This document shows, piece by piece, positions 2,570 through 30,792 of a DNA stretch of 32,000 bases (within the stretch, counting starts at the first letter, position 1; every line of letters starts with the position of its first letter). Under the pieces are notes generated by a model. That model had not been told where the DNA came from. It worked only from the letters and a program-made list of their open reading frames with translations, and ran no database searches. Made by a program: the position numbers and the translations under genes. Source of the stretch: Nitrosococcus oceani ATCC 19707 (GTDB lineage Bacteria; Pseudomonadota; Gammaproteobacteria; Nitrosococcales; Nitrosococcaceae). Location of the stretch: positions 1 through 32,000 of the forward strand of contig NC_007483.1 in assembly GCF_000012805.1 (NCBI RefSeq), written 5' to 3'.

Positions 2570-2807
2570 TGCTCTCTTCCTCATCTCTTATCTTAAGAAA
2601 TTGCTTCACCTGGTAAGACTTGGCCTTGCCATTGGCGGTTGGCTGAATAGACAAGCGCCTCCGTCCAGGGGAATACCAAATTTCATGGCTTCCCGTTTGG
2701 TGATCGAATATCCATTGGCACCGCGCTAATAGCGTTTTGAATTCACCAAAAGACAAACCGCCTGGATGGTTGCCAGCCTTGGCAACCAATTTTTCTGTCT
2801 TACCCAT
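2559..2807 (-). CDS. hicA: HicA-family mRNA interferase toxin
   Basis: 82 aa, 'FKTLLARCQWIFDHQTGSHEIWYSPGRRRLSIQP' (YcfA/HicA-like). It lies immediately upstream of hicB and overlaps it, which is the canonical hicA-hicB order. Confidence 0.8.
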   Translation of the reverse strand: MGKTEKLVAKAGNHPGGLSFGEFKTLLARCQWIFDHQTGSHEIWYSPGRRRLSIQPTANGKAKSYQVKQFLKIRDEEESNGN

Positions 2808-2861
2808 AATGGTAACTATATGCAGTTACTATCATAAAAATAAAGCCTCCTGCTTGGGAGT

Positions 2862-4340
2862 CCACCGCCAAGCGCCAGACCAGACGCCGGAACCGCCACA
2901 CGGCAGCCAGGAGCCAGAACCCAACGGCGGCAGCGCGGAACCAGGAAATCCAATGGCAAACGCCAGCACCGGCAGGCCACGAGAAGCGGCACACCGGGCC
3001 GCTAACAACGAACCGCGCGAGCTGGGCGAGGCAAAAAATACCACCAAGCCGGACGAGGCCGCAGCGACTACTGCCCGAGTACGGGAAGCCAGGCGCATGG
3101 ATAAAGGCGCTGAAGAATCCCCGCCCGACCACCAGGAAACTGAACCACCGGCAAGATGAAACTCAGCCACTTCCCGAACCGCGGACCCCGACCAGGCACC
3201 CGGTGCCGAGTAGCGGCCTGACGGAGCACGGAACGGCGGCGACACGGGACCGAAGGCGGCGAGGCAGCACACCCGGCCAGGGGAGCCCGATCCGAAAGAC
3301 AATACCGCAGCATCGGCGCCCACGCAGCAGCCAACCACCAGCGAGCAGCCGCCAGCCACTAGCATGGCGGAGACTTGCGCCACAGCGCCAGAACCGGCAG
3401 GCGGCAGCGAGCGGGAGCCCGCCACCGCCACCACCCCAGCGGGGAACACTAGACCGCACCCGCAGACGAAGCCAACCGGGCCAATGCGGCACGAAACCGG
3501 CGAGGCGACCAACCAGCGGGGAGCGCTACCTTGACGCACCAGACAGGCACCGGCAAGCCACAAGCCGCGAACACTGGCGAACCGGACCCACCGGGCCGCA
3601 CCCATACGCGAAACCCAAAACCCACCGCCACAGAACGAGCAAACACACGAGCGACACGCGGGGAGCGGACAGGAACAAACACGCAAGCTGGAGCCGGCGA
3701 CCAGCCCGGACCACCCGGCAGCGCACGCCACGCCCACACCCAACCGGAACGGCAAACACGGGCAACGACACCCGCGCCACGAGAAGAAGGAACAGAAACG
3801 AAACCACGGGACATAAACAACCCCCAAAACAGAAAACACCCCACAACCCGCGGGCAGGACGCCCGCGGAACCAGGCCGAAGGCCCAGGAGGGACCCCCAG
3901 CGCGCACCGCCCCGGCGGAGGGGGGACGGCGGCAATTTAGAACAAGGCGATAGATGACACGGGCAAGCAAGGCCGAGACAGGCACATGGAAGTGCCTGGC
4001 CGCCAAGCGCGGGCATGGATAGCCCGTGCCGCCTTGCATGACCGGGGCAACTAGCGCACAACAACTAGCCGCCGGCCACCCGACGCGGGCGAAAGCTAAA
4101 ACGCCGCAGGACGCGGCGAGAAGGGGCAAGGAAGCCCGCCGATATCTGAGCACAGCACGAGAAAAGAACGTCGATGCAGGATTCTAGATTGGCGTTGGAA
4201 CTTGATGCGCGGGGCAGGAGCGCCGCGCCATTAGCCAAGGATGGCGATAAGCCGGGCAAGGATGCCGGGCGCGGCCTGCTCGGCGCAGCGGAGCAGGCGC
4301 CAGGGAAGGCTGTAAGCGAGCTGGACACGACGGGCGAGCG
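2862..4340. other. extreme strand-asymmetric three-letter tract (T-depleted on +, A-depleted on -), GC-rich, no credible CDS
   Basis: Hand count gives about 41 T in 2881-3960 (1080 nt). There is only one T (3814) between 3690 and 3935. Positions 3601-3720 contain C46 A40 G32 T2. T rises gradually from 3936 to ~4340. Eleven mutually overlapping track ORFs on both strands fall here. Confidence 0.9.
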
Positions 4341-4691
4341 GAATAAATTATGCCCGGCGTACGATGTTAACCAGGAATTCCGGGCCCAGATTTAGAGGCA
4401 GAAGAATTTAGTCTGCACTTCGCCGGGCACACCTTTAACCAGCACCATGCTCACCGCGGGCACGGAGATTTATTTATACATCAGCCGAATTAACCAGATT
4501 CTTTTTCATGATGGATATTAACCCCAGAGGAGAGATGCGGATATAAATTTTGGCTAATTTTAAAATTGGGAGCGCATCTCAACTACTGTGGTCTGGCTCA
4601 TATCATTTGCCCACCGTCCGATTACAATAAGTACATAAACCTAGATGTCATGGCTTCTATAAATCTCTGTTTCACGTGGAAGAAGGACAAT

Positions 4692-4880
4692 ATGGACAAT
4701 ACGAAGGACAATACTCAGCAACACCGGGTTATTCCCGCCGCATTTCTCGGTATTGTCACTGGCCTAGTTATGGCCGCTGGCATTGCTGGCTACTTGGAAC
4801 GGGAAACGCTCGCCGATATTTACTTTTATCTTACCGCTGACAGCGTGGCCTTTGATGTTAGTGGAGAAATCAGGCAATGA
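4692..4880 (+). CDS. small membrane protein (62 aa), possibly translationally coupled to the pseudopilin gene
   Basis: Internal ATG at 4692 with GAAGGA upstream. One hydrophobic helix (VIPAAFLGIVTGLVMAAGIAGYL). Its stop overlaps the next start (ATGA at 4877-4880). The 5' part of the track ORF looks non-coding. Confidence 0.35.
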   Translation: MDNTKDNTQQHRVIPAAFLGIVTGLVMAAGIAGYLERETLADIYFYLTADSVAFDVSGEIRQ

Positions 4881-5398
4881 GGCACACCCACGGATTTACT
4901 CTTGCCGAGTTGATAATAACGTTGGCAATTGCTGCTATTTTAACCACAATGGCAGTACCCTCCTTCACCGGCGCCATACGGACAGACCGTTTGGTGACGG
5001 ATACCAATACCCTCATTACCACTTTTACTCTGGCCCGTACTGAGGCTATCAAGCGGGGCATGCAAGCAGCTGTCTGTTCTGGAAGTGAGACTGCTGGCTG
5101 TGGAGGGAGCTGGAACGATGGCTGGATTGTCTTTGTCGATAGTGATGAAGACTGTGCCTACACCACAGGCACGGATACTCTACTCCGGGTCTCCCAAGGA
5201 TTAGATAACAGCACCTTGAAGGTAAAGCAGAATGGCAGTTCAAAGGTTTGTACCGCGTTCAATTCTAGGGGCATGAATACGACTGCTACATTTAATGAGG
5301 AGTTGACCTTTACTTTGTGTAGCCCAGGTCTGGGAAAAACCAGAATATTAAGTATTAATCCTGTAGGCCGGGCAAATAAGTCAGAGGGCACGTGCTAA
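4877..5398 (+). CDS. GspH/FimT-family type IV (pseudo)pilin
   Basis: Prepilin leader and N-methylation motif 'MRHTHG|FTLAELIITLAIAAIL'. 'PSFTGAIRTDRLVTDTNTLITTFTLARTEAIKRG' is typical of the FimT/GspH N-domain. No other pilus genes are in the window. Confidence 0.8.
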   Translation: MRHTHGFTLAELIITLAIAAILTTMAVPSFTGAIRTDRLVTDTNTLITTFTLARTEAIKRGMQAAVCSGSETAGCGGSWNDGWIVFVDSDEDCAYTTGTDTLLRVSQGLDNSTLKVKQNGSSKVCTAFNSRGMNTTATFNEELTFTLCSPGLGKTRILSINPVGRANKSEGTC

Positions 5399-5467
5399 TA
5401 CGCGCCAGTAAATACCGCAAGGGATGTGGCAAAGTTCTTCAATTCTCAGCCACATCCCAACCCGCCA

Positions 5468-6664
5468 TTAGCGATCTTCGCAAATTCTCCCGCCGGGGTA
5501 GCGCAGCGTTGAGACCACAGTCCCCTCTGGATCACGCAAAATCGCCGTATCCCCCGAATTATTCCATATAGGGCGTCCTATTGCGGTGGAGTCTATCCGA
5601 AGGGTACCGCCAGCATTAAGGCTGCCTTGTAAGGCAATCTTATGGTCCGCTTCATCCGCCAGTATCCAGCCGGTTAAATCCAGATGCTGAGCGCCAGAAT
5701 TCTGTATCTCCACCCATTCACCGGCCAGATTTTTGTTATCGTTTCCAGGCGCATCGGGATGCACGCAAATAATTGCTAATGTTGCCTTTCGCTCGGCTGA
5801 AGAGGTTGTCTGTGCGCCATTCAATTTTCCTTTTGGAGATGGGGATACCGGATCACCAAGCACAATCACCACGGGAGCATGGTCACTGACGGTTTTTCGA
5901 GCTAGCTTGTGAGTAATTCCCAAACGCTGAGGGAAACGATCGATCCGGGCTTCCTGGATTTTCAAGGCATCCGGTCGGTACCAGATATTATCGTAGAGAT
6001 TGGCGTACCGGCCCTCTTTGGCGGACAGAGTCGTTGCCCCTTCCCGGATAGCGGGTTTAAGTACTTTAGCCAGATCCCGGAATCCCGCTGAATCCGGGGG
6101 TAGGTTGAAGTCGCCCATCAGAACCACCGGATCTCCTTCAGCGACGTTTTCCTCTAGCCAGTTTACATACTCATCAAGCTGCTGTGCTTCTCGGCGCCGC
6201 TCATCCCGGCTATCTCCATAGACCACATGTACGGTGGCCGCAGTCCAACGATACTTTCCATTATCTGTCTGAAACCGTGCTGCAAAAGGCTCCCGCGCAA
6301 AGATATCGCCTGGGTCTAAATAGACCACAGCGCCGCCCACATAATCGACAGCCTCTTCACGCCAGATGAAAGCATAGAATTCCTGGTAACGTTTCGAGCG
6401 TCCTACGCTGGTTCCCGAAACCAGTGAGGACCATTTTACTCCGGTCTGCTTCTTCAGCGTCTGGACCAGATGGTTGACGGCCGTTTTACTCATTACCTCC
6501 TGGAGGGCGACAAAATCGTAGGGTGCTACGACCGCCGCGGTTGCGTTCCAGTTCCTCTTGTCTCCCCACCCTAAATGTTTGGTATTCCAGCTTGCAATGG
6601 TGAACGCTTGCGCTGAGATAGTGGGTAGAAAAAGAAAAAATAAGATTAATAACCGCTTGCCCAT
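5468..6664 (-). CDS. secreted endonuclease/exonuclease/phosphatase (DNase I-like) protein with C-terminal lamin-tail domain
   Basis: Signal peptide MGKRLLILFFLFLPTISAQA. EEP motifs 'IASWNTKHLG', 'ALQEV', 'GDFN' and 'SDHAPV'. The C-terminal 'LAGEWVEIQNSGAQHLDLTGWIL' is LTD-like. Confidence 0.8.
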   Translation of the reverse strand: MGKRLLILFFLFLPTISAQAFTIASWNTKHLGWGDKRNWNATAAVVAPYDFVALQEVMSKTAVNHLVQTLKKQTGVKWSSLVSGTSVGRSKRYQEFYAFIWREEAVDYVGGAVVYLDPGDIFAREPFAARFQTDNGKYRWTAATVHVVYGDSRDERRREAQQLDEYVNWLEENVAEGDPVVLMGDFNLPPDSAGFRDLAKVLKPAIREGATTLSAKEGRYANLYDNIWYRPDALKIQEARIDRFPQRLGITHKLARKTVSDHAPVVIVLGDPVSPSPKGKLNGAQTTSSAERKATLAIICVHPDAPGNDNKNLAGEWVEIQNSGAQHLDLTGWILADEADHKIALQGSLNAGGTLRIDSTAIGRPIWNNSGDTAILRDPEGTVVSTLRYPGGRICEDR

Positions 6665-6834
6665 AATAGCTACTCCTCTTGATCAGAAATAGCTGGCAAT
6701 GCTACGCGAACCTGAAGAGCTACAGCCAGAGAACGGATGAATCTATATAAAAGAGAGTTAACTCATTCAGAAAAGAGAGCGCGAAGCCGAAAACCTGATT
6801 ATCTGACTCAATCCCTATAAAGAAGCACTTACCT

Positions 6835-7242
6835 ATGAAACAACGTCGATGGCAATCTTGTCTTTTTATCCTGTCTTGCTTTTTATGGGCGCCTATCCTT
6901 TCAGCGGATGAAGATACCCTTGATCAAGCCTGGTTCCAGCAGATCTGCCAGCAGGCGCTCACGAAAACGATAGAAACATCTGGAGCTGCTTTCACTAGCG
7001 GCTACTGTTATGGTTACCTCCAAGGGTTGCGGCATACGGGAAAGGTGGCGAATGATTTTGTTACTCGGCCCGAGTTATGGGGTCGTCAGCTCTGGTGCAT
7101 TCCCGAGGAAGAGAGCCTTGAAGCAGTGGCGCAGATTGTAATCGCTGAGCTGAAGACTCCTCCTGGCAATAGTGAAACCTCCTCCTACTCCTACCCCGCC
7201 GCAGTGATGAAATCCTTGAAAAAACGTTACCCCTGCCCATAA
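6835..7242 (+). CDS. secreted Rap1a/Tai-like (T6SS-immunity-like) protein
   Basis: Signal peptide, then 'GYCYGYLQGL ... LWCIPEEESLEAVAQIVIAELK ... PAAVMKSLKKRYPCP'. This matches my recollection of the Rap1a-family pattern (C.GY..G ... CiP ... PC). Assignment rests on the motif only. Confidence 0.5.
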   Translation: MKQRRWQSCLFILSCFLWAPILSADEDTLDQAWFQQICQQALTKTIETSGAAFTSGYCYGYLQGLRHTGKVANDFVTRPELWGRQLWCIPEEESLEAVAQIVIAELKTPPGNSETSSYSYPAAVMKSLKKRYPCP

Positions 7243-7306
7243 GCCGCTGAACTAATTAGCAGTATTGCCGATATTTCTTAAAATTCAACGCAAGAGGCAC
7301 AGATAT

Positions 7307-8122
7307 ATGGCCCGTCGCCGATCCAATATCGTGGAAAGTATGTACGGCATCTTTCTGCGGACACCTTGGTGGGTCAGTCTCCTAGTGGCAGGCACGGCAT
7401 ATGCCGCTCTTAATTTTGGCCTACCCGCCTACATTGATGAAAGCAATTTGTTCTTAAAACCATTTGAACCACTGGGGCCACTCTTCGCGCCTTGGGTAAC
7501 GGGTTTTGTCTTGTTAACTGGCGCCTTTGCGCAACTCGGCAAGCGGTCTCGCCGGAAATTGCTGAATCGTCAATCGGGCCTTGATTCGATTCGCGCCATG
7601 AGTTGGCAGAGTTTTGAAAAACTGGTAGGCGAGTGCTACCGGCGGCAAGGGTATAGGGTGGAAGAAAAAGGAGGTGAAGGCGCCGATGGCGGTGTTGATC
7701 TGGTATTACGACGGCAAGGTGAGGTCATTCTCGTTCAGTGCAAACAATGGAAAACTAGGCAGGTGGGGGTCGCTAAGGTGCGCGAACTCTACGGTGTGGT
7801 GGCTGGTGAGAACGCTACTCGAGGAATCCTCGTCACTTGTGGTCAATTCACTCCTGACGCTAGGGCCTTTGCCAAAGGAAAAGCGCTGGAGTTGGTAGAG
7901 GGGACCACGCTGCTGGAGCGGATAAGTGAAGTTCAAAAGCACAGCAAAACTGATCCAGGCATCGTTCCTAAGCGAGCACAATCTACTCAAGTCGATCCCA
8001 ATTGCCCTCTTTGCGGTAAATCGATGGTGCTCCGAAAAGCTCGAAAAGGGAGGAATGCCGGTAAAAAATTTTGGGGTTGCATCGCATTTCCTCAGTGTAG
8101 AGGCGTAAGGAATTGTCCATAG
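7307..8122 (+). CDS. membrane-anchored Mrr_cat-type restriction endonuclease-fold protein with C-terminal topoisomerase-type zinc finger
   Basis: Two N-terminal hydrophobic helices. PD-(D/E)xK core 'GADGGVDLVLRRQGEVILVQCKQWK'. C-terminal 'CPLCGKSMVLRKARKGRNAGKKFWGCIAFPQC'. The start was moved to the ATG at 7307 because the track start at 7265 is TTG. Confidence 0.75.
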   Translation: MARRRSNIVESMYGIFLRTPWWVSLLVAGTAYAALNFGLPAYIDESNLFLKPFEPLGPLFAPWVTGFVLLTGAFAQLGKRSRRKLLNRQSGLDSIRAMSWQSFEKLVGECYRRQGYRVEEKGGEGADGGVDLVLRRQGEVILVQCKQWKTRQVGVAKVRELYGVVAGENATRGILVTCGQFTPDARAFAKGKALELVEGTTLLERISEVQKHSKTDPGIVPKRAQSTQVDPNCPLCGKSMVLRKARKGRNAGKKFWGCIAFPQCRGVRNCP

Positions 8123-8899: not shown

Positions 8900-9557
8900 T
8901 ATTTTTTTGCTCCCACTTGGCTAGGTAATTGTGCAAGTTGGATGATTTATTCATCTGACCAAGAAGGTCGCCGATGGCTTTGTCAATCGCGCTGCTCATG
9001 GTAGAAGCAAAACCTCTTCCAGCTTCTTGATAGGTCATTTGACCCATCTCCTGAGATCCACCTTCTTCCTTCGCTTGGGTCGTACCCACCCATATTGTTC
9101 TGTTCTCTTGCGCATCCTGGATTTCTGCCCGGATGGAAAGGCGAGAGTAGGCCTCTGTTGAAATAGTTGCAAATCCTGTCCGCATGGCCATATTGACATC
9201 CATATCCTGTAAGCTAACGCGCATGAGCGCATCCACTGGCTCCGGCCCAGAATAACTCAGCGTATCGATAATATGGATAGTCCGAAAATTATATGCGAGC
9301 GCTTTAACTAATTTCGCCGAGAATGCTCTCCCTATGTCAAAGGAGAATTCTCCCATTCTAATTTTCTGCTCTACGTTTAAGTTCTTGAGCTTCGGATCAA
9401 GATAAAGGGCCAAAGAAACATCGCGCATATTAATCTGCCGCATATTCTCGAAGGCATCCATACCCAGGCTGGAGTCAAGAGAAGGAGCTACCTTAACGGT
9501 GCATCCCGCTACTCCGATAAAGGCGACGATGATCAATGAAAAAAATTTGTTTTTCAT
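8874..9557 (-). CDS. lipoprotein, unknown function
   Basis: Signal and lipobox 'MKNKFFSLIIVAFIGVAGC'. 227 aa, in an operon with the glycine-zipper lipoprotein. Confidence 0.65.
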   Translation of the reverse strand: MKNKFFSLIIVAFIGVAGCTVKVAPSLDSSLGMDAFENMRQINMRDVSLALYLDPKLKNLNVEQKIRMGEFSFDIGRAFSAKLVKALAYNFRTIHIIDTLSYSGPEPVDALMRVSLQDMDVNMAMRTGFATISTEAYSRLSIRAEIQDAQENRTIWVGTTQAKEEGGSQEMGQMTYQEAGRGFASTMSSAIDKAIGDLLGQMNKSSNLHNYLAKWEQKNNGMPCAQR

Positions 9558-9855
9558 ATTATGACCTTGAATAACAATCTAGGCTTAAGATAACCCGTTC
9601 CTGGAAGGAAAAGGCCTTGCTCTCGCTTAGTTATCGTCATCTCAGTGGAAGTGCTTAATTTCACAATACATATCACTTTTGGCTTTCATCAGAATACGAT
9701 CATCAGATAAATACCATTAAGCTTACCTGGATCATCCCTATCACCATCCGGTTCTTCGAACTCCTTGTCAATTGCAGGTAAGGACAATATGGTTTCCATC
9801 GCCGTATTTTTGGAAGTTGCTTTCCTTGCCATATTTGTTATACAAGGTGACTAAG

Positions 9856-10629
9856 ATGACAAAAACTACAACCATTGCCTTAGCAAACCAAAAGGGAGGC
9901 GTAGGAAAAACCACTACGGTGGTCAACCTAGCCTATGCGCTCTCTCAGCAGGGAAAACGGGTGCTAGCAGTAGATATGGACCCCCAGGCAAGTCTCACCC
10001 TCTACTGTGGCCACGATCCCAGAGTACTAGAGCAGCAAAAACACACCATCTATTGGGGACTCATAAAAGCCGGTGGTCTTGCTAATCTGGTGATCACCGG
10101 AACCCCCGCTCTCCTTCCTTCAAGCATCCAATTAGCTAAGGCGGAACCGGAATTAGCCCGGGAGTGGGACTCAATTTCTATCCTTAAGGAAAAACTGCGC
10201 GAAATCGAAAATGATTACGATTTTATCCTCATTGACTGTCCGCCAACGCTCGCGCTGCTTACTATCAATGCGCTTACTACAGCCGATGCGGTATTGATAC
10301 CCGTCAAGACGGACTATCTCTCAATCATGGGTATTCCTCTCATGTTAGAAACTATTGAAGACGTGAGACGACGCCCCAACCCGCGCCTTGAGATCATCGG
10401 TGTACTGCCGACCATGTTCGATGTGCGCAATAGTCACGACAACGAAGCCCTTGCCGAACTTCGCAACTCTTTGGAACCGGATATTCATGTCTTCGATCCT
10501 ATCAGCCGCAGCACCAGTTTTGATAAATCAGCCGCGGAGGGGCGTTCTACCCTTGAACTCCTCCCCAATGCCCCTGCGGCGCAGAATTACTTCCAACTAG
10601 CTAATCATCTGGTGACGCACTATGGCTAA
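9856..10629 (+). CDS. parA: ParA-family partition ATPase
   Basis: Deviant Walker A 'NQKGGVGKTT' directly after the ATG at 9856 (AAGGTGA upstream). 'DFILIDCPP' is present. It overlaps parB by 8 nt. Confidence 0.9.
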   Translation: MTKTTTIALANQKGGVGKTTTVVNLAYALSQQGKRVLAVDMDPQASLTLYCGHDPRVLEQQKHTIYWGLIKAGGLANLVITGTPALLPSSIQLAKAEPELAREWDSISILKEKLREIENDYDFILIDCPPTLALLTINALTTADAVLIPVKTDYLSIMGIPLMLETIEDVRRRPNPRLEIIGVLPTMFDVRNSHDNEALAELRNSLEPDIHVFDPISRSTSFDKSAAEGRSTLELLPNAPAAQNYFQLANHLVTHYG

Positions 10630-11476
10630 AAAAATTTCACCCCTTGCCGGCAAGATTAATCGAAACGTATTTTTTCATACCTCCCTGGATCTGCCGCGCA
10701 TCATAGAGGTGGATCTCAGCAATCTCAGGGAGAATCCCGATCAACCCCGTAAAACCTTTGACGAGACGGCTTTGCAAGAGCTTGCCGCCTCCATAGAGCA
10801 ACACGGATTAATTCAGCCTATCGCTGTTGCATCCGATCCGGAAAATAAAGAGGGTTACATGGTGGTGGCCGGTGAGCGCCGGTTGCGGGCTTTTAAGCGG
10901 CTTGGGCGTGAGACCATCCCAGCCATCGTTACCCAGGGGAACCGTGATGAGATCGCCTTGATTGAAAATCTTCAACGCGAAAACCTCAATCCACTTGAAG
11001 AAGCGGAAGCGTTAGCACAAATTATGAGCCGCCATGCGTACACTCAAAATGAGGTAAGTAAGGTCATCGGCAAAGCTAGAAATACGGTGAATGAGCTTTT
11101 GCGCCTCAACACGCTGCCTCAAGGCATTAAAGAGGAGTATCGGAGTCGGACGTCCGACTCTGGGGTGTCGAAGTCAGCGCTTATTGAGCTGACTAGGATA
11201 AAAAACAAAGACGAACAATTGAATCTTTGGGAAGAATTAAAGGCAGGGGCCACCGTGCGGACTGCTAGAAAAGCAAAAAAAGAGGAAATAACCAGCAAGA
11301 CGCCTTCTTCTCCAGCCATGCAACTGCTTTCTGCTGGGAAAGGATTTACCAAGAAACTGGCGGGGATTGCTCCTCACGAATTAAACAGTGAGCATTTTTA
11401 TACGTTGCTTAAATTACGCGAGCAGATAGATAAATTAATTAATACCCTAGAGGAAGAAGGTGGCGGGCGATTTTAG
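10622..11476 (+). CDS. parB: ParB/Spo0J-family partition protein
   Basis: ParB box 'GYMVVAGERRLRAFKRLG' and 'IALIENLQRENLNPLEEAEA'. An HTH region follows. Confidence 0.9.
   Translation: MAKKISPLAGKINRNVFFHTSLDLPRIIEVDLSNLRENPDQPRKTFDETALQELAASIEQHGLIQPIAVASDPENKEGYMVVAGERRLRAFKRLGRETIPAIVTQGNRDEIALIENLQRENLNPLEEAEALAQIMSRHAYTQNEVSKVIGKARNTVNELLRLNTLPQGIKEEYRSRTSDSGVSKSALIELTRIKNKDEQLNLWEELKAGATVRTARKAKKEEITSKTPSSPAMQLLSAGKGFTKKLAGIAPHELNSEHFYTLLKLREQIDKLINTLEEEGGGRF
11143..11160. promoter_or_regulatory. 18-bp perfect palindrome GAGTCGGACGTCCGACTC, copy inside parB (candidate parS)
   Basis: Exact palindrome. An identical copy lies at 11558-11575. Confidence 0.5.
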
Positions 11477-18974: not shown

Positions 18975-19203
18975 GATTTATCTCTCACTGCGTAAAGAAA
19001 CTCGATAAGTATCCTTATATGCTGACGTAGATTATTTTACTCAGTAAATTGCCTAACTTGGCCGCGAAAAGCAAGCAAAAAGCGGGGTGAGGCAGCGAGT
19101 AAAACAAACCCTCGTTTTCTTTACCAGGGATTCTCTGCCTGTGATGCCGCTTGCTGCTATGGAGAAGTTTTGGCCTGCGCCTGGAGGGCGGTACACTGCG
19201 GCT

Positions 19204-19572
19204 ATGAATCACCCCGATGAAGCAGACTGGTTGAGAGCGGCCTATCTGGAGAAGCGAGACTTGGAGAAGCGGCAGTTTCGTTTCTATTGCATTATCATCA
19301 CCCAGATGCTCTTTGGCCACTGGGCCTTAATCCGGGAATGGGGCCGAATTGACAGCCTCGGCACCGTCCGGGAAGTTTGGTATGACACTCAGGAACATGC
19401 TCGGGAAGCAGGTGCTATCTTACTCAGTCAGAATAGGCATCACCACCTCTACTTCGTATGCCTACGTCACTGGACAACGATTACTCGATCGCGAAAAGGC
19501 CAGATGAGGAAGAAGCTGAGGGAAATCTCAAAACCTATCGCAGCGTCCACATTTATCGTTATATCGGCCTGA
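19204..19572 (+). CDS. WGR-domain protein, paralogue 1 (divergent/extended C-terminus)
   Basis: 'YLEKRDLEKRQFRFYCIIITQMLFGHWALIREWGRIDSLGTVREVWYD'. The ATG at 19204 aligns with the start of the 23032 paralogue. Similarity is lost after about codon 70 and the frame reads on for about 50 more codons. Confidence 0.55.
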   Translation: MNHPDEADWLRAAYLEKRDLEKRQFRFYCIIITQMLFGHWALIREWGRIDSLGTVREVWYDTQEHAREAGAILLSQNRHHHLYFVCLRHWTTITRSRKGQMRKKLREISKPIAASTFIVISA

Positions 19573-19583
19573 AACTGCATCAT

Positions 19584-20546
19584 TTATTCCTGAAGAGGAT
19601 GAATGAGTAGATTCCAATAATATTCGGAAGCACCTTCATTGGTGAGCTTTTCCTTAGCAGCAGGTTGATGAAACTGCATGCCGAGCGGCTTCAAATACAT
19701 CATATGGCCATCATCTTCGATTCGAAGTTGCTCATTGAAACTACTGTCACTACCTGTATCACCGTACGCATACACGAGGCCACTGGTGAAAGAATTTTGA
19801 CTGCCTTGCCAGATGCGGCAACTGCTGATGGATTTGCCATTTTCATAAATGGCAGCGGAGAAATGGCGGGCATCAATACGTCGGAATCGAGTTCGAATAC
19901 TAGGATTACGCCGCTCCAGCTCAGCTAGAGAACCCTCGAAGAAATTTGCCATATAATCAAATGCATCATCGAGAAAGGTATCACGGTCATGGTCCGTGAA
20001 ACTCTTCCTGATACGTAAATTGCTGGATCGTAGCGCATGCCGTACAGGAGCAGTCTGCTCGGTAGGTGGGTAAGCAGATAAGCCCGTCTGAGGCTTGATG
20101 GGAGCCGATATCACTTGCTCGGCAGCTCGTTTGATTGCCTTGACGATTTCTAAAAAGGCCTCGTCTTTATCTGGAAACTTCGTCACGGGTTTGCCATCCG
20201 TAGGCGTTGCTAAAAGCTTGCCGAAGCGTGCGCTATGCCAGTCGCAGGGGCGGAGAATTACCGGAATAACTTTGGCATTACCTTCTTCATGCCGCTCCAA
20301 AGCGCGGGTCATCTCGACATCGTAACAATAGTCGGAAGCCAGGAAATCCGGGCTGACTAAGAGAAGAGTGATATCGGCATTCTCAAGATTTTCACTGATA
20401 GTCTGGTCAATGACCTCTCCGGCCCCAATTCTCCGGTCATGCCAGGCATCAATCACACCTTGGCGTTTGAGCATGGCAAGGTGTATCTCCAGCTCGTCAC
20501 GCAAAGGCTCATCCTTATGGGAGTAAGAGAAGAAGACAGAGGCCAT
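19584..20546 (-). CDS. TIR-domain protein with uncharacterised C-terminal domain
   Basis: 'VFFSYSHKDEPLRDELEIHLAMLKRQGVIDAWHDRRIGAGE...ADITLLLVSPDFLASDYCYDVEMTRAL...VIPVILRPCDW' is a canonical bacterial TIR, with the Glu in 'CYDVE' retained. About 180 aa of the C-terminus are unassigned. The ATG at 20546 is preferred; the track start at 20564 is TTG. Confidence 0.85.
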   Translation of the reverse strand: MASVFFSYSHKDEPLRDELEIHLAMLKRQGVIDAWHDRRIGAGEVIDQTISENLENADITLLLVSPDFLASDYCYDVEMTRALERHEEGNAKVIPVILRPCDWHSARFGKLLATPTDGKPVTKFPDKDEAFLEIVKAIKRAAEQVISAPIKPQTGLSAYPPTEQTAPVRHALRSSNLRIRKSFTDHDRDTFLDDAFDYMANFFEGSLAELERRNPSIRTRFRRIDARHFSAAIYENGKSISSCRIWQGSQNSFTSGLVYAYGDTGSDSSFNEQLRIEDDGHMMYLKPLGMQFHQPAAKEKLTNEGASEYYWNLLIHPLQE

Positions 20547-20567
20547 CAGTTTTTTCTCGATCAATGG

Positions 20568-20801
20568 TTAATGCTTCCGATCTTTGGGTGGGTGAGGATT
20601 ATTCTCGTAGCTATGGGAGTCCCGGATTCGGCCATCACAACGATGAATTACCAGCGCCGTCTGGTTTTTTTTCGCCAGTCTCCTGCCTTCGTTACTGGCA
20701 TCTTTCTGGGTACGGTGAAGAGAAGAAGCGCGATCTTTTCCCTCTTTTTGTATAGCCCACTGCTTGTTACGGGGCACCACATGATAATCACGCTTAGGCA
20801 T
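20568..20801 (-). CDS. DUF2188-domain protein
   Basis: 'YHVVPRNKQWAIQKEGKDRASSLHRTQKDASNEGRRLAKKNQTALVIHRCDGRI' matches the DUF2188 pattern. GGAGAGG RBS. Its stop is 3-21 nt from the TIR gene start. Confidence 0.75.
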   Translation of the reverse strand: MPKRDYHVVPRNKQWAIQKEGKDRASSLHRTQKDASNEGRRLAKKNQTALVIHRCDGRIRDSHSYENNPHPPKDRKH

Positions 20802-21000
20802 ACATCCTCTCCAAGTTAGTCAATCATCCAGTCATCACCGGAGACAAAATATTGAGACCTATACAGCCCAAGTATATCCTCCAGCGCCTCCAAAGGTAGC
20901 TCATCTTGAGCAAGTTCAATGGCTTGCCTCGATCTAGCCATCGTGCAGTTGATTCAAAACCTGAGTGGATAATTGCTGTCTTTATTAAATAGAATTAATA

Positions 21001-21041
21001 TCCCAGATAATATGTGTCCTTAGGACACATATTATCTGGGA
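21001..21041. promoter_or_regulatory. 41-bp near-perfect palindrome (20-nt arms, 1-nt centre), core GTCCTTAGGAC
   Basis: TCCCAGATAATATGTGTCCT-T-AGGACACATATTATCTGGGA, in the divergent intergenic region between the DUF2188-TIR operon and abiEi. Confidence 0.6.
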
Positions 21042-21084
21042 ATTGATAAACTGTCAAGAAAATCCTTTTAAGACATTGGAAGTA

Positions 21085-21113
21085 TTGACAATATTTACGA
21101 TACCATATATACG
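21085..21113 (+). promoter_or_regulatory. sigma70-like promoter of abiEi/abiEii
   Basis: TTGACA (21085-21090), 17-nt spacer, TATACG (21108-21113). It overlaps the left arm of the second palindrome. Confidence 0.45.
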
Positions 21114-21139
21114 TCCTAAGGACGTATATATGGTATCGT
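21097..21139. promoter_or_regulatory. 43-bp near-perfect palindrome (21-nt arms, 1-nt centre), core GTCCTAAGGAC; candidate AbiEi operator
   Basis: ACGATACCATATATACGTCCT-A-AGGACGTATATATGGTATCGT. It ends 10 nt before the abiEi ATG. Confidence 0.6.
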
Positions 21140-21148
21140 TTTTACTCT

Positions 21149-22069
21149 ATGGATATTCGCACCGCTCTGACTCTGGAACTGGGTGATCTCCATCAGCCCG
21201 TCGTGACTAGCTACCATCTCGGTCTTCTGGTGTTTCGCCTGTACCAAACTAAAACCTACCGGGGTGAACCCATTGCTCGTTTGAGCAAGTCCTACCCGGA
21301 GCGGAGTGACTATCGCCGGTTTGTTGGCAATTTGGAACGTTTAGGTGTGCTTCGGAACACCACCGCAGTGCCTAATAAAGAGGTTTTCATCCTTCTTGGC
21401 AAAGATATCTCCTCGGCCGAGGAGATTGCCTGTTGCGTCGATCCCTTCACCTATGTTTCGCATCTGAGCGCTATGGAATATCACGGTCTTACCGACCGTT
21501 TTCCCAAAACGCTCTTTATAACCGCCCCCCCACCTGTTCGCTGGTCACAGCTGGCAGGGGAGAAAATGCGAAAGGAGATAGGAGGGGAATTTTACTTGTC
21601 GTACCTTGACACTCATCTTCCTCGGTTGCGGCGTCTGCGTTTGCCAAAAATCAATCGCAAGTCCGTTAGCCTATACACGACCGTTCATTATGATCTCGGC
21701 GCTTATCTATCAATTCAGGATAAGACTTTGCGAGTCTCAACAATCGGGCGCACGTTTCTTGATATGATTCGGGAGCCTGATCTATGCGGTGGCATCTATC
21801 ATGTGCTGGACGTATATGCGGAGCATGCGCTCCGCTATCTGCGTTTGATCGTAGATAAGGTTGACCGCCATGGCAGCCCCATTGATAAGGTGCGCGCAGG
21901 ATATATTCTTGAAGAGCGTCTTAAGCTCGAACATCCTACCATCGCAACATGGCGGGCCTATGCCAAACGAGGCGGTTCACGAAAGCTTTTAGCACAAGCT
22001 GACTACAGCCCGCACTTTTCCGAAACATGGTGCTTATCCATTAACATCGATGAGCCTGGGGAGCCTTGA
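21149..22069 (+). CDS. abiEi: AbiEi-family antitoxin/transcriptional regulator (type IV TA)
   Basis: 306 aa. 'VSHLSAMEYHGLTDRFPKTLFI' is typical of the AbiEi C-terminal domain. It lies immediately upstream of an AbiEii nucleotidyltransferase gene. Confidence 0.75.
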   Translation: MDIRTALTLELGDLHQPVVTSYHLGLLVFRLYQTKTYRGEPIARLSKSYPERSDYRRFVGNLERLGVLRNTTAVPNKEVFILLGKDISSAEEIACCVDPFTYVSHLSAMEYHGLTDRFPKTLFITAPPPVRWSQLAGEKMRKEIGGEFYLSYLDTHLPRLRRLRLPKINRKSVSLYTTVHYDLGAYLSIQDKTLRVSTIGRTFLDMIREPDLCGGIYHVLDVYAEHALRYLRLIVDKVDRHGSPIDKVRAGYILEERLKLEHPTIATWRAYAKRGGSRKLLAQADYSPHFSETWCLSINIDEPGEP

Positions 22070-22927
22070 TTGCAAAAATTCGATATCAAAGAGTGGATCA
22101 ACCAGAATTCAGAACATCGCTCCTTTCGCCAAGCCGTTCATACCATCCTCACCGCGATTGCGGGTACTCCCAGCCTACAAACAGCTATGATTATGAAGGG
22201 CGGCGTGCTGCTTGCTCTCAGCTACAGAAGCCCGCGTTATACCTCGGATATCGACTTTTCGACAGCAACGAAGCGGCCTGATTTTAACCTTGATGATTTC
22301 CGCGGGAAACTTGAAGCGAGTTTGATTGATGCCGTTGAAGATTCGGGATACGGCCTCGATTGCCGCATTCAGCGTTGCAAGATGAGCCCCCCTCACGATG
22401 AGGCTACCATGCCGACACTTCAGATCAACATTGGTTATGCCTATAAAGGCCAACACAACTATAAGCGTCTGTTAGAAGGCCGGGCGACTACGGTCATTAG
22501 CCTCGATTATAGCCTAAATGAGCCCGTGGAAGAAATTGATATCTTCGAGCTGGAAGACGGGAATGTTATTCATACTTATAGCCTGGTGGAGATGGTGGCG
22601 GAGAAGTTCCGCGCGCTCTTGCAGCAGGAAGTCCGCAAGCGGGCACGGCGTCAGGATATTTATGATCTGCACTATGTCCTGAGCGATCATCCCCTGCGCA
22701 ACGACTCGGATACCCAAGCCCGTATTCTTAAAAGGCTGATTGATAAATCACGCATTCGTGATTTATCGGTACATTTAGATTCTATGTCCAACCCTGAGAT
22801 TCGAAATCGCACAGCGCTTGAATACTCCAAGATGGCCCCGGAAATTGAAGGTGATCTTCCACCATTCGATGAGGTTTATGCCATAGTCGAGTCTTTTTAT
22901 CGAGCCCTTCCTTGGGAAAAGGTCTGA
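22070..22927 (+). CDS. abiEii: AbiEii/AbiGii-family nucleotidyltransferase toxin
   Basis: 'MKGGVLLALSYRSPRYTSDIDFS' (NTase G[GS]...DxD motif) and 'VEMVAEKFRALLQQ'. The TTG start directly abuts the abiEi stop. Confidence 0.8.
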   Translation: MQKFDIKEWINQNSEHRSFRQAVHTILTAIAGTPSLQTAMIMKGGVLLALSYRSPRYTSDIDFSTATKRPDFNLDDFRGKLEASLIDAVEDSGYGLDCRIQRCKMSPPHDEATMPTLQINIGYAYKGQHNYKRLLEGRATTVISLDYSLNEPVEEIDIFELEDGNVIHTYSLVEMVAEKFRALLQQEVRKRARRQDIYDLHYVLSDHPLRNDSDTQARILKRLIDKSRIRDLSVHLDSMSNPEIRNRTALEYSKMAPEIEGDLPPFDEVYAIVESFYRALPWEKV

Positions 22928-23031
22928 TTCCCTGTATCACCATTTACTTCATCGTTTCGGCCAAAAATATCTACTTGCGCAGATTCACGTAGGCTTCTGG
23001 TCTGCCCCTGAGGGCATGGTACATTGCTGGC

Positions 23032-23292
23032 ATGAAGCACCCCGGCAAAGCAGACTGGACGAGGGTGGCCTATCTGGAGAAGCGAAACCCAGAGAAGCGC
23101 CAGTTTCGCTTCTACCGCATCATGATTACCCAGACGCTCTTCGGCTCGTGGGCTATGATCCGCGAATGGGGCAGGATCGGCAGCCCCGGTACTGTGCGGG
23201 AAGTCTGGTTCGACAGTGAGCAGGAAGCGTTAGAAGCCGGTGAGAAGCTTATGAATCAGAAAACACGGCGGGGGTATCAAGTCATCACGTGA
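23032..23292 (+). CDS. WGR-domain protein, paralogue 2 (compact, 86 aa)
   Basis: 'YLEKRNPEKRQFRFYRIMITQTLFGSWAMIREWGRIGSPGTVREVWFDSEQEALEAGEKLMNQKTRRGY' is a complete stand-alone WGR domain. Confidence 0.8.
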   Translation: MKHPGKADWTRVAYLEKRNPEKRQFRFYRIMITQTLFGSWAMIREWGRIGSPGTVREVWFDSEQEALEAGEKLMNQKTRRGYQVIT

Positions 23293-24007
23293 AATCTCAA
23301 AGTCTAAACACATAGCTTCCCAAAGGAAACTATGCCACAAGCTGTGGCCCAAAGAGAGTACGGACTAGTTCTTTTCTCCTTACCTGCGACTCCGGTAGTG
23401 GCCTCGAACGTAGGTTTCCTCTCCCGGTAATAGGCGTCATCGTGAGGTTTGTGCGCTGAATTGCAAATACCCTCTACACTTCTATCCGAACAATTCTGTA
23501 AGCAGTTGCCCTTCCTACGCCAAGCTGTCTACGTGAACACGGAAAGCAAATACGGCGTCGTTTAGTCGTAACCCAAGAGGTAACCTCGCCCGATTCGCAC
23601 CATCACAACGGCTGCACCAGACGTGTGCGGCCGTTCTTTTGGACGAAAAGCCAGCCGACGTATCGAGTTGTCGGCTATATTCATTGACTGTCCGCTTGTG
23701 ACCGCCTTCTACGGACGGTGGTTTATGGCCGATAATGCGATTTATAAATTTGAAAGCCTGGCCCCCATCACCACAAGAGAAACTCTCTTATCTCCCGAAT
23801 TAATGCCGTTATAGATGATGTGCAACTGGAAGCCATCACAACTGATATTGTCTGACCGCGTACTGATCTAATTGGCTCATTGTGTCTTGGCACAGTAATT
23901 TTCACTACTCGGTAAAATCTAGTGCGCTGCTGTGTGTGGCTAACTTGCCTTGTCCGCCGATTCCTTTAACCTCAACTCAATAGCAACCTAATCGCCTGGA
24001 GCGCTCA

Positions 24008-26758: not shown

Positions 26759-26761
26759 GGC

Positions 26762-30180: not shown

Positions 30181-30329
30181 TTCCGACCCAAGGCAGACGC
30201 TTACAAACTAGATATGCTCCCGAGTAGCGAGCCAGCTTCGGAATCAACCGTTTTTTTCACTGCCGCTAATGACTAATGATTTACGCGCTCATTCTTGCGG
30301 TGCTCCGTCCCCGTCGCCATCCAGAGGGG

Positions 30330-30629
30330 TCATCCTACAAGCCAAATACCACCCGCCTCGGCGGCAGAGCTGGTCATCTCCTTGCAGTAGCACTTAGGAC
30401 CATACACACGTAGAGGACGCTTGCTTGCCAAATGCCAAACGCTTTGCCCGGTTGCCGTAGGGCTGATGCTTCTCTGGCCGCCTATTTCAGTCAGGCGCAC
30501 TTTAATTGGTTGGTCACCGGCTGCTAGCAGGGTAAGCGTATCGCCGTCAGTTATTCCCACCACGCGTCCAGTGTGGTCGGCCAAAGCCGCCAGGGAGAAA
30601 AACAGAAACAGGATTATTATTTTTCTCAT
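30330..30629 (-). pseudogene. decayed thermonuclease (SNase-family) gene
   Basis: An intact signal peptide and 'GRVVGITDGDTLTLLAAGDQPIKVRLTEI' resemble the SNase N-terminus. Family similarity is then lost ('GGQRSISPTATGQ' where I recall D-A-P-E), and the ORF stops at 99 aa. Confidence 0.4.
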
Positions 30630-30792
30630 AGCTACCTCGACAAAAGAAAACTCCGTCTGAGGGAAATTTCCTATGAAACCGAATCAGCATAGCTATCCAT
30701 GAGAAACATCTATTCTCTTCAACCAAGGGGATATTGCGTAGCGGAATCGGTCGTGGGCCAACCGCTCAAAGGCGGCCGGGTCCGGGAAGAGT

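Follow-up and report, generated by a model that had tools for sequence, protein, structure and literature searches.

The T-poor tract at 2862–4340 of the window (the whole stretch of 32,000 nt of Nitrosococcus oceani ATCC 19707 DNA analysed here) is almost certainly the promoter-proximal part of a minus-strand operon, in which an adenine-poor leader is followed by two genes, here called geneA and geneB, and then by hicA and hicB. There is equally little doubt that the geneA and geneB products are real, conserved proteins that are predicted to fold, with nearly all of their residues drawn from F, L, V, S, P, A, C, W, R and G. The plus strand is T-poor because the sense (minus) strand of geneA, geneB and their leader is A-poor. 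The features of the region, in the direction of transcription, are listed below.

3936..4340, minus strand: upstream GC-rich region, partly adenine-depleted, non-coding, with conserved blocks
3815..3935, minus strand: adenine-free 5' leader of 121 nt (0 T on the plus strand, 0 A in the sense strand)
3821..3825, minus strand: GGGGG, a Shine-Dalgarno sequence without adenine, 6 nt before the geneA ATG
3814->3449, minus strand: geneA, CDS of 121 aa plus TAG stop, ATG start at 3814-3812
3447..3451, minus strand: TAGTG overlap of the geneA stop (3451-3449) with the geneB start
3449->2832, minus strand: geneB, CDS of 205 aa plus TGA stop, GTG start at 3449-3447
2807-2559, minus strand: hicA (Pfam HicA_toxin)
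2584-2201, minus strand: hicB (Pfam HicB)

Evidence for a minus-strand operon

On the plus strand, 2862–3935 contains 36 T in 1074 nt, and the binomial probability of so few or fewer is 3.6e-75 at the T frequency of the 32-kb window (23.2%). A single T, at 3814, interrupts the 246 nt of 3690–3935 (P(≤1 T) = 5e-27 at the same window-wide frequency), 2862–2948 has no T at all, 2881–3960 has 41 T in 1080 nt (3.8%) and 3601–3720 is composed of C46/A40/G32/T2. Every T count checked from a preliminary description, which had been made from the letters and their open reading frames, came out identical on recount, and its statements that T recovers from 3936 and that the flanks are AT-rich correspond to 10.4% T in 3936–4340 and 27–28% T in 2700–2860 and 4341–4700. 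A scan of the whole 32 kb identified 702 overlapping 100-nt windows with T below 5%, with the minimum at 3690, while A never fell below 6%, C below 7% or G below 10% in any 100-nt window; the T-poor tract is the sole one of its kind in the 32 kb. Tandem periodicity was absent, as described earlier, and sensitive blastn of the tract against the 32-kb window gave chance matches only (E ≥ 0.13), with no second copy, internal repeat or template repeat. An assembly artefact was ruled out: the tract recurs in the finished plasmids of N. watsonii and N. halophilus, at 92% and 82% identity, and dozens of independent contigs, from genomes and metagenomes, carry it too.

Divergence between the three Nitrosococcus plasmids (window, N. 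watsonii and N. halophilus) supports coding. Positions 2862–3800 align without indels at 82% identity; the substitutions have a 3-nt period, and most of them are synonymous when read on the minus strand. In geneA they are distributed over the three phases as 40/8/6, peaking where the coordinate modulo 3 equals 2, with 45 synonymous and 11 non-synonymous minus-strand changes. In geneB the phases are 59/14/22 against N. halophilus, peaking where the coordinate modulo 3 equals 0, with 51 synonymous and 23 non-synonymous changes read on the minus strand (37 and 34, with an in-frame TGA, on the plus strand). The switch of codon phase falls exactly at the conserved TAG/GTG overlap, whose T3450 is kept in all three plasmids and whose TA+GTG junction recurs in two further homologous loci (L001 and L005); the overlap suggests that geneA and geneB are translationally coupled. 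The sole T of 3690–3935 is the A of the geneA ATG, with GGGGG before it, and most of the 14 geneA-bearing loci likewise have GGGGG ahead of the geneA start.

The sense strand of geneA has 9 A in 366 nt, located in the ATG, the TAG, the AAG codon of Lys95 (3532-3531) and five synonymous third positions; that of geneB has 35 A over its 618 nt. Of the geneB residues, 92% belong to {F,L,V,S,P,A,C,W,R,G}. Across both genes A remains at start and stop codons, at the invariant geneA Lys, at the likewise invariant Asp46 of the geneB 'GAD' motif and at some synonymous sites, and all of these except the synonymous sites are places where adenine cannot be replaced.

Coding on the plus strand was rejected on the basis of fewer synonymous changes, the in-frame TGA at 3157 and the lack of a start codon matching the extent of the periodicity; the protein read from such a frame would look hydrophilic and disordered. 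Also rejected was the third minus-strand gene that PGAP calls within 3936–4340 in N. halophilus, as divergence there is without codon periodicity (34/32/37 by phase). PGAP annotation of these plasmids is inconsistent in frame and in places falls on the antisense strand. As observed earlier, neither strand of the tract can bring translation to a stop, and the eleven overlapping ORFs noted there agree with the ORF list; the restriction of minus-strand frames to F/L/S/C/W/P/R/V/A/G, noted at the same time, describes the actual proteins.

The proteins encoded by geneA and geneB

The verdict of the preliminary description, 'no credible gene', is overturned by the 3-periodic, synonymous-biased divergence, by 449 homologues of geneB and 70 of geneA, and by AlphaFold models with pLDDT of 94.5 and 85, respectively. 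A protein built from A-free codons, which that description had ranked last among its hypotheses, is thus what the minus-strand coding evidence bears out.

The geneA product is small and basic, with 16 R+K, no D or E and a single Lys, and its homologues share invariant P42, C44, F46, V47, P48, K95 and G101. Its model has an alpha/beta fold (pTM 0.80) with no significant fold match in the PDB. Neither geneA nor geneB gave an informative match in PHROGs, PADLOC or NCBIfam.

The geneB product is a single-domain DprA/Smf-like Rossmann protein according to AlphaFold and structure matches, and its homologues also share invariant residues. The top Foldseek matches of the model are the DprA structures 4ljk, 5mll and 3uqz and the ShosA structure 8zva; the best 14 PDB matches are all DprA or ShosA (E 1e-5 to 9e-4, TM 0.49–0.56), the best DprA matches being from H. 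pylori, S. pneumoniae and R. palustris. Weaker matches include the LOG and PpnN nucleosidases (E 0.007–0.05). The motifs conserved in the geneB family (GSR, GC..GAD, RL..R and S.GS) correspond one to one to GSR, G..G.D, R.R and S-G-S of DprA in an alignment to 3maj, and geneB in homologous loci lies in a recombination module, beside an SSAP-like protein and Gp157, as do many phage recombination genes. These neighbours hint at a possible role in ssDNA binding and RecA loading, like that of DprA in transformation. The model predicts a DprA-like, ssDNA-recombination-mediator fold for geneB. While geneB shares the Rossmann-like domain of DprA/Smf (PF02481), it scores below the thresholds of both PF02481 (E 2.1e-5, 24.3 bits against a cutoff of 29.6) and TIGR00732 (21.5 bits against 191), lacks the flanking DprA domains, its 205 aa forming one domain, and uses an alphabet of about ten amino acids unlike that of any characterised DprA. 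The fold also resembles ShosA, the DprA-like antitoxin of the ShosTA anti-phage system (8zva, E 1.5e-4, TMq 0.56), and one homologue of normal composition has weak ShosA and PsyrA matches in PADLOC. Unlike in ShosTA, no ShosT phosphoribosyltransferase lies beside geneB in the window or the homologous plasmids, and geneB itself has no PADLOC match.

Flanking sequences and plasmid setting

The leader is almost identical across the three Nitrosococcus plasmids at 3840–3935 and is non-coding, with 1-nt indels and no codon periodicity in the block 3762–3911; hairpins are predicted at 3933-3902, 3901-3875 and 3868-3848. Further upstream, 3936–4340 is probably a leader or regulatory region, with a terminator-like hairpin at 4118-4102 on the minus strand and mosaic divergence marking 3936–4090 as a patch of recombination between plasmid lineages. 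Rfam and tRNA scans of the window returned nothing. A Chi-rich or RecA-loading hotspot was rejected, with just one GCTGGTGG in the tract.

Downstream, hicAB start 24 nt beyond geneB on the same strand and are of ordinary composition; they are missing from most homologous loci and are context, outside the A-free unit. The neighbours of geneB in the window and on homologous plasmids are geneA, hicAB, small ORFs and DUF932. The preliminary description placed the tract in mobile DNA beside an ICE-type module; the setting is a plasmid of N. oceani type rather than an ICE, with ParAB, KfrA, a resolvase and defence genes, and the geneA product is 100% identical to an NCBI protein assigned to N. oceani. 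MazF and RelE toxins are annotated on the close relative pNWAT01.

Adenine depletion in homologous loci

The homologue search recovered 995 clusters from a library of 1.84 billion proteins, and the family is carried by plasmids, prophages and phage contigs of several phyla. In 27 genome loci and 11 viral loci (from Gammaproteobacteria, Betaproteobacteria, Chloroflexi and others) A makes up 0.2–7%, and T climbs to 35–40% in AT-rich contexts while A stays depleted. Hundreds of plasmid and phage homologues have the adenine depletion in common. At four-fold synonymous sites A is 5.2%, compared with 16.1% in other ORFs of the same loci. In locus L018, A occurs 1, 2 and 3 times at codon positions 1, 2 and 3 over 187 codons, with 83 T at position 3, and in L005 the corresponding A counts are 0, 4 and 0. 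The family start codon is mostly GTG, and TAA is a frequent stop.

The limits of the A-free stretch can be followed in L018 and L037, in both of which it opens just after a -10-like box (TATAAT/TATACT) and has A-rich DNA adjoining both ends. In L018 it goes no further than the stop codon, whereas in L037 it continues for about 45 nt past the stop, up to a hairpin. Cistrons further down the same operon are of ordinary composition, some loci without geneA still have an A-free geneB, and 163 of 602 residual A's sit in the last ~10% of geneB. The proportion of residues from the A-free alphabet forms a continuum from 47% to 99% across homologues. Some homologues have a normal composition, such as P0284, whose CDS is 41% A, and A depletion is therefore not required by the fold.

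These patterns suggest that the force probably acts on nucleic acid, not protein, against sense-strand adenine of the transcription unit, and that it persists across hosts. The depletion covers synonymous sites, the Shine-Dalgarno GGGGG, the start codon and the 5' UTR, extends from about the promoter to near the stop codon or terminator, and travels with the gene family, not the host, through plasmids, prophages and phage contigs. Three general causes were considered and rejected: ordinary replication skew or genome-wide mutation bias, as only T rises in AT-rich hosts and neighbouring genes are normal; nitrosative or oxidative deamination in nitrifier and methanotroph hosts, as sense-strand C (30%) is not depleted; and strictly ATP-independent transcription, as stop codons and residual A's persist.

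Possible causes of the depletion

The best explanation as a whole, which we judge to have slightly less than an even chance of being right, is protection of the message. Its core, that the mRNA is the unit under selection and that an A-free message resists adenine-dependent RNA attack, is the likeliest single reading and still a doubtful one. An A-free message would offer no substrate to the mRNA interferases MazF (ACA), Kid (UAH), ToxN (AAAK) and HicA (A^AAC), and further possible attackers are some abortive-infection and CRISPR-associated RNases, mRNA adenine ADP-ribosyltransferases and deaminases. The element could then keep making the DprA-like protein and its partner while other messages are destroyed; in the present operon the attackers would include the co-transcribed HicA, plus MazF and RelE as annotated on pNWAT01. 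ACA, AAAK and AAAC occur at 0 per kb in the tract vs 7.9, 14.6 and 5.5 per kb in the downstream genes, and GA at 8 vs 78 per kb. A message without a nuclease recognition element can go on being translated as other mRNAs are cut: cells that express MazF translate ACA-less mRNAs, and HicA cuts A^AAC in tmRNA (PMC5408214; PMC9102682). The tract resembles ACA-less mRNAs in having no ACA, AAAK or AAAC; it differs in that those avoid a motif of 3–7 nt with the protein unchanged, whereas here a whole nucleotide is avoided over 1 kb and the amino-acid alphabet is reduced.

Several observations count against mRNA protection. Immunity would be incomplete, because geneB keeps 35 A and TAA is a frequent stop in the family, and the last ~10% of geneB tolerates A. 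Only these cistrons are A-free out of the whole recombination module. Toxins that cut A-free motifs are known (MqsR at GCU; MazF-mt3, -mt6, -mt7 and -mt9; MazF-mx; PMC5408214), and the tract has double the GCU frequency of the downstream genes. In several members, set against rough expected A frequencies for ordinary genes, A looks more depleted at codon positions 1 and 2 than at position 3, so that the protein alphabet is shifted more than synonymous usage.

Selection and strand-specific mutation pressure predict the same equilibrium composition. A mutation pressure limited to the transcription unit, by which adenine of the sense strand or of an RNA copy is lost (A->N) until the A-free sequence is reached as an absorbing state, is unlikely as the explanation. 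It could stem from damage or deamination of adenine coupled to transcription, or from repeated copying by a reverse transcriptase that is mutagenic at adenine, as in diversity-generating retroelements (DGRs), with purifying selection keeping the proteins functional. It would account for the depletion of UTR and synonymous sites, for boundaries resembling a transcription unit and for the continuum of composition, and only A-free sequence is stable under A-specific mutagenesis. The bases that replace A argue against it. Where normal homologues have A, codon position 2 carries C in 51%, G in 29% and T in 11% of cases, and at positions 1 and 3 the replacements equal background composition, not G; the amino-acid swaps are functional (Y->W/F, T->S, M->L), giving S/A, W/F and L and not the deamination products G, R and C. 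The fossil of T->C (A->G) hypermutation suggested in the preliminary description fails on its own terms, as A is replaced by C, G and T in background proportions. Co-transcribed downstream genes are normal, and the boundaries track the gene family in unrelated contexts.

To our knowledge, DGRs are the sole prokaryotic process specific to the adenines of one strand. As in a DGR setting, A-free sequence would be copied faithfully by adenine-specific mutagenesis; unlike in DGRs, no reverse transcriptase was found in the window, in the annotation of the sister plasmid pNWAT01 or among the 25 families listed for 130 large neighbouring ORFs, the window has no template-repeat-like copy, TR/VR pair or A-to-N mismatch pattern, and the tract spans whole genes over ~1 kb instead of a C-terminal variable region of ~100–150 bp.

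A further possibility, which we consider improbable, is that T-free template DNA is selected, so that the gene can be transcribed when thymines are blocked, for example by DarT-type thymidine ADP-ribosylation in ssDNA; a recombination mediator could then still be made and rescue DNA that has been damaged. Cells tolerate DarT lesions by recombination, and the DprA-like fold of geneB and its place in a recombination module beside an SSAP-like protein and Gp157 fit this proposal, as does the template (plus) strand of the tract, with 0–4% T; each T fewer would bring a graded benefit, in keeping with incomplete depletion. Yet the same strand is 37% C, leaving pyrimidine-dimer damage possible, a promoter cannot do without T, the template strands of the remaining recombination-module genes are not T-free, and the window annotation has no DarT or similar gene.

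Self-immunity, in which the operon product acts on adenine in RNA or ssDNA and its own message or gene is kept A-free, is less probable again. Some toxin messages lack the toxin's own cleavage motif, the trait tracks the gene family and not the host, and the DprA/LOG (SLOG) fold includes adenine-nucleotide N-glycosidases, which the weaker LOG and PpnN matches of geneB recall. The best structure matches are, however, non-catalytic DprA and ShosA rather than LOG, the LOG catalytic motif was not identified in geneB, homologues of normal composition retain the same four motifs, and geneB is A-free in loci that lack geneA.

Selection on the protein, favouring a product without Lys, acidic residues, Thr, Tyr or His that might escape modification or a protease, with the nucleotide bias as a by-product, has very little probability and is largely refuted by the synonymous-site and UTR data. 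The lack of acidic residues and the single Lys of geneA accord with it, and in several members, against the same rough expected A frequencies, depletion at codon positions 1 and 2 looks at least as strong as at position 3. Opposed to this are the three-fold depletion of A at four-fold synonymous sites, its avoidance in the 121-nt leader, the Shine-Dalgarno sequence and the start codons, and the identity of the residues themselves: T, I and M are excluded and S, V and L retained as set by the genetic code, and they form no chemical class.

The non-coding readings put forward in the preliminary description, a long structured RNA lacking U or A (as a template, as a sponge or as RNA that resists nucleases) and an R-loop or transfer element, are barely credible, refuted for 2832–3814 and possible just for 3815–4340, since the very stable predicted fold (-449 kcal/mol for 983 nt) follows from extreme composition and, for leader and whole message, is no better than dinucleotide shuffles (z = -0.55 and +0.27), Rfam is empty, the R-loop or transfer element is without specific support, and codon-periodic, synonymous-biased divergence with confident protein folds accounts for the conservation, the conserved leader with its hairpins being the remaining point in favour of RNA structure.

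Relation to other adenine-poor and reduced-alphabet sequences

The preliminary description knew of no element with such a composition, and a literature search on adenine-free, adenine-less or A-depleted genes and on reduced alphabets in phages gave no bacterial precedent. In vertebrate secretory mRNAs, adenine-poor coding regions of signal sequences act as ALREX export elements (PMC2100149, PMC3635865). As in the tract, a coding region is A-depleted at the nucleotide level, and ALREX is the sole literature match with an RNA-level reason; it differs in comprising short N-terminal eukaryotic segments that serve nuclear export, in unrelated biology. Folded alpha/beta domains have been engineered from about 9–13 amino-acid types as laboratory constructs. 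The alphabet of geneA and geneB, by contrast, is natural, set by the codon table (no A) and found across hundreds of sequences.

Implications

In these plasmids and phages natural selection can maintain a working Rossmann-type fold and a second alpha/beta fold from about ten amino acids, with acidic residues all but absent, a reduced natural alphabet that bears on debates about minimal and early protein alphabets. The depletion reflects a strong selective or mutational force on a single base, on one strand and in one transcription unit, conserved across phyla and mobile elements, and its cause could expose a new adenine- (or thymine-) directed defence or counter-defence activity. In practical terms, A-free tracts are mis-handled by gene callers and human readers, and nuclease-proof expression cassettes might take A-free messages as a natural model. 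We tentatively propose, as a view with appreciably less than an even chance of being correct, that the tract belongs to a class of plasmid and phage operons whose adenine-free messages and ten-letter proteins may serve an arms race, not recognised until now, over adenine-directed attack on RNA or ssDNA. If true, this arms-race reading would add a new principle of evasion and make these operons a natural experiment in how proteins evolve with a reduced alphabet.

Composition and plasmid setting of the tract

Positions 2862–3935 contain 36 T in 1074 nt on the plus strand (binomial P ~4e-75 at the window-wide T frequency), while the T share is 10% in 3936–4340 and 27–28% in the flanks, and no other base drops below 6% in any 100-nt window of the whole 32 kb. 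The counts given in the preliminary description were all reproduced (41 T in 2881–3960, none in 2862–2948, only T3814 in 3690–3935, and C46/A40/G32/T2 in 3601–3720), and its eleven overlapping ORFs are present, with a mechanical origin. The tract is genuine sequence: the finished N. watsonii plasmid pNWAT01 (92% identity) and N. halophilus plasmid pNHAL01 (82%) have copies at the same place, which speaks against the artefact that had been considered. More distant T-free tracts occur in plasmids of Methylobacter, Methylocaldum and Methylomagnum, the last with ~2 T per 1000 nt.

The window is a Nitrosococcus oceani-type plasmid carrying ParAB, KfrA, resolvase, integrase and several defence systems. 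Between 2781 and 4214 it is identical to N. watsonii except for four isolated single differences and two patches, 3190–3400 and 3936–4090 (51 and 50 differences), in both of which N. watsonii often agrees with N. halophilus, a pattern suggestive of mosaic gene conversion among plasmid lineages within the tract. An odd cluster at 4877–8122, kept in pNHAL01 and pNWAT01, adjoins the tract, and seven gene calls form a defence island at 19087–31842.

Gene calls in the adjoining cluster and the defence island
4877–8122: GspH/FimT pseudopilin; lamin-tail-domain protein with endonuclease/exonuclease/phosphatase domain; Rap1a/Tai immunity protein; Mrr-type restriction endonuclease with topoisomerase-type zinc ribbon
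19087–19572: WGR-domain protein, defence island
19584–20564: TIR-domain protein, defence island
21149–22927: AbiEi/AbiEii, defence island
24008–26758: MmeI-type restriction-modification enzyme, defence island
26762–28843: helicase, defence island
28840–30180: T5orf172/MUG113 protein, defence island
30793–31842: Abi_2 protein, defence island

Two coupled genes on the minus strand

Alignment of the three Nitrosococcus tracts revealed no indels in 2862–3800 despite 18% divergence, and the differences are strongly 3-periodic, with counts by coordinate mod 3 (0/1/2) of 59/14/22 in 2862–3461 and 6/8/40 in 3462–3761. Because each phase is compatible with one frame per strand, codon changes were counted on both: synonymous versus non-synonymous changes number 51 versus 23 and 45 versus 11 in the first and second regions on the minus strand, and 37 versus 34 and 36 versus 15 on the plus strand, whose frame is interrupted by an in-frame TGA in this window. 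The phase switches exactly at a conserved CTAG, where a minus-strand TAG stop (3451–3449) overlaps a GTG start (3449–3447), and the sole T of the 246-nt run 3690–3935 is the A of a minus-strand ATG (3814–3812) with GGGGG six bases upstream, which together define two genes.

Genes of the tract
3814 to 3449, minus strand: geneA, 121 aa
3449 to 2832, minus strand: geneB, 205 aa, ending 24 nt before hicA

Minus-strand periodicity, synonymous excess, homologue families and confident AlphaFold models thus establish two coupled genes and their family where no credible gene had been seen. Beyond 3814 periodicity is lost and 1-nt indels are present, so that 3815–3935 is a putative leader; no codon periodicity was seen in 3900–4400 in the divergence among the Nitrosococcus tracts.

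RefSeq annotation of the tract differs among sister plasmids (pNWAT01, L047 66–683 and 675–1382; pNHAL01, L001 3980–5590): one carries an antisense CDS and another carries three minus-strand CDSs, the third probably spurious. The N. oceani geneA product is annotated at 196 aa instead of 121. An 11-codon mini-ORF (ATGATAGTAACTGCATATAGTTACCATTATGGGTAA; 2799–2834, minus strand) overlaps the geneB stop (ATGA) and reaches the hicA start, with AGGAGG 10 nt upstream in the A-tolerant geneB tail, and may have a role in translational coupling to hicA. In the A-poor region upstream of geneA, a conserved terminator-like hairpin (4102–4118, minus strand; CGCCGCGTCCTGCGGCG then TTTTAGCTTT) may act as an attenuator within a long leader or mark where an upstream transcript ends. 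The E. coli Chi octamer GCTGGTGG inside geneB (3335–3342, minus strand), which codes for the conserved SLVVGC motif, is probably there by chance, as the tract contains it only once and the minus strand of the window three times in all.

Protein families and predicted folds

Searches at E<=1e-3 retrieved 449 geneB homologues from a collection of 5.8 billion proteins, and a profile search gave 995 clusters in a library of 1.84 billion representatives; geneA has 70 homologues, and its product is identical to a protein labelled N. oceani by NCBI. Invariant columns include G11, S12, R13, C41, G44, D46, W106 and W107 in geneB and P42, C44, F46, V47, P48, K95 and G101 in geneA. AlphaFold models reached pLDDT 94.5 and pTM 0.90 for geneB, and 85 and 0.80 for geneA, whose model had no significant fold match. 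The best structural matches of geneB are DprA of H. pylori, S. pneumoniae and R. palustris and the DprA-like antitoxin ShosA (E 1e-5 to 9e-4, TM ~0.5), with LOG, PpnN and Moco-carrier proteins ranking lower. The sequence-level DprA match is real yet falls under curated cutoffs, and geneB is therefore predicted to be DprA-like, not a DprA; it represents a new branch of this fold, extreme in composition. Membership in PF02481 is excluded by score, and a place in ShosTA is excluded despite the resemblance to ShosA, as the toxin is missing. Conserved downstream neighbours comprise small ORFs, a protein weakly similar to Erf-like ssDNA-annealing proteins, and Gp157; integrases, capsid, terminase and RecT genes also lie near family members, placing the family in plasmid and phage recombination modules.

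Adenine avoidance across homologous loci

Residues from F/L/V/S/P/A/C/W/R/G make up 98.3% of the geneA product, which has 16 R+K and no D or E, and 92% of the geneB product. The nine geneA adenines comprise those of the ATG, the TAG, the invariant Lys95 AAG and five synonymous third positions. The 35 in geneB include that of the invariant Asp46 codon of the 'GAD' motif and 18 at third positions (17 synonymous plus the TGA stop), and some cluster within the final nine codons.

In geneB, the share of A at four-fold synonymous third positions is 5.2% over 25 homologous loci, versus 16.1% in other ORFs of these loci. In AT-rich settings T rises and A remains excluded: locus L018 has A1/A2/A3 of 1/2/3 over 187 codons with T3 of 83, L034 has 1.6% A and 40% T, and a Chloroflexia bin (L022) has 0.9% A and 36% T. 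GTG is the predominant start codon in the family, and the Shine-Dalgarno sequence of geneA is GGGGG instead of GGAGG. The excluded amino acids (T, I and M; not S, V or L) are picked out by the codon table rather than by chemistry. In L018 and the viral contig L037 the A-free stretch starts straight after a -10-like box and ends at the stop codon (L018) or ~45 nt past it at a hairpin (L037), with A-rich DNA bordering both ends; in L037 it spans 1.4 kb and three ORFs whose TAG stops hold almost the sole adenines. Genes farther down the same operon have normal composition. The unit of avoidance is thus these cistrons' transcript or the DNA from which it is transcribed. The trait accompanies the gene family across Gamma- and Betaproteobacteria, Chloroflexi and phage contigs, and these loci establish a conserved sense-strand avoidance of A, at the nucleic-acid level, confined to the transcription unit.

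The wider L037 region (8978–10741, an IMG/VR phage contig) is A-free over 1.76 kb: a small hydrophobic A-free ORF, with a (GGCT)n run at ~8990–9030, is followed by a promoter-like TATACT and then three A-free ORFs, the last a geneB homologue. None of the upstream ORFs there matched the geneA profile, so that A-free protein families beyond geneA and geneB exist. In AT-rich contigs of Methylomarinum, Methylomonas and 'Sulfurimonas' bins (L013, L014, L015), geneB has relaxed to 15–21% A and the geneA stretch just upstream is still at 6–8%, so that the constraint can be lost one gene at a time.

Normal-composition relatives

Among 147 best representatives, the share of A-free-alphabet residues ranges from 0.47 to 0.99 and is >=0.95 in 50. 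One homologue, P0284, is an ordinary protein rich in K/E/I/N with a CDS of 41% A, and the A-free composition is thus not needed by the fold. K, E, D, Q, N, H and T of normal members mostly become S or A, next R or G, in A-free members, with Y replaced by W or F, I by V or L, and M by L or A. At codon position 2, A gives way to C (51%), G (29%) and T (11%); at positions 1 and 3 it is replaced in background proportions. Had A->G change alone (T->C on the plus strand) been at work, G, R and C residues would be expected. The replacement bases and residues differ from that expectation and are not mainly G, so the Y-collapse test came out against the T->C hypermutation fossil proposed earlier, and the tract is not a deamination fossil.

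Possible causes of adenine avoidance

We infer that the likeliest cause is selection acting on the message, since the trait goes with the gene rather than with host or location, includes the UTR, Shine-Dalgarno sequence and start codon, and concerns a protein that can exist with normal composition. The most concrete benefit we can name, with low confidence, is that an A-free message may resist RNA-targeting enzymes that require adenine. The tract has no ACA, AAAK or AAAC and ten-fold less GA, with these motifs at 5–78 per kb in the downstream cistrons, and HicA is encoded immediately downstream of the tract genes. Translation of ACA-less messages in MazF-expressing cells is known, and HicA cuts tmRNA at A^AAC (PMC5408214). 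However, residual adenines persist, TAA stops are frequent in the family, several toxins target A-free motifs (GCU is enriched in the tract), and protection gives no reason why only these cistrons need it.

Compared with selection on the message, strand-specific mutation pressure is an unlikely source of the trait, and a T-free, lesion-proof template strand is slightly less likely still. It is improbable that the products have an adenine-directed activity to which the genes must be immune, and selection at the protein level is very improbable. A non-coding RNA or R-loop is hardly credible: the long structured RNA suggested earlier finds no Rfam family, and neither the leader (z = -0.55) nor the 983-nt message (z = +0.27) is predicted to fold better than its dinucleotide shuffles; the fold is very stable, at -0.46 kcal/mol per nt, but composition alone accounts for this. 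No template-like repeat of the tract was found within the window, and no RT family among the 25 families listed for 130 neighbouring ORFs. The annotation of pNWAT01 likewise shows no reverse transcriptase; this plasmid instead carries TrfA, IncFII-type RepA, HicAB, PemK/MazF, RelE/ParE, Druantia and dGTPase.

Full-text literature searches of incomplete coverage found no precedent for near-complete avoidance of one nucleotide over whole transcription units; the sole adenine-poor coding regions retrieved encode signal sequences in vertebrate mRNAs, an unrelated case. This avoidance across transcription units, with the ten-letter protein alphabet that results from it, therefore appears to be a new kind of phenomenon.
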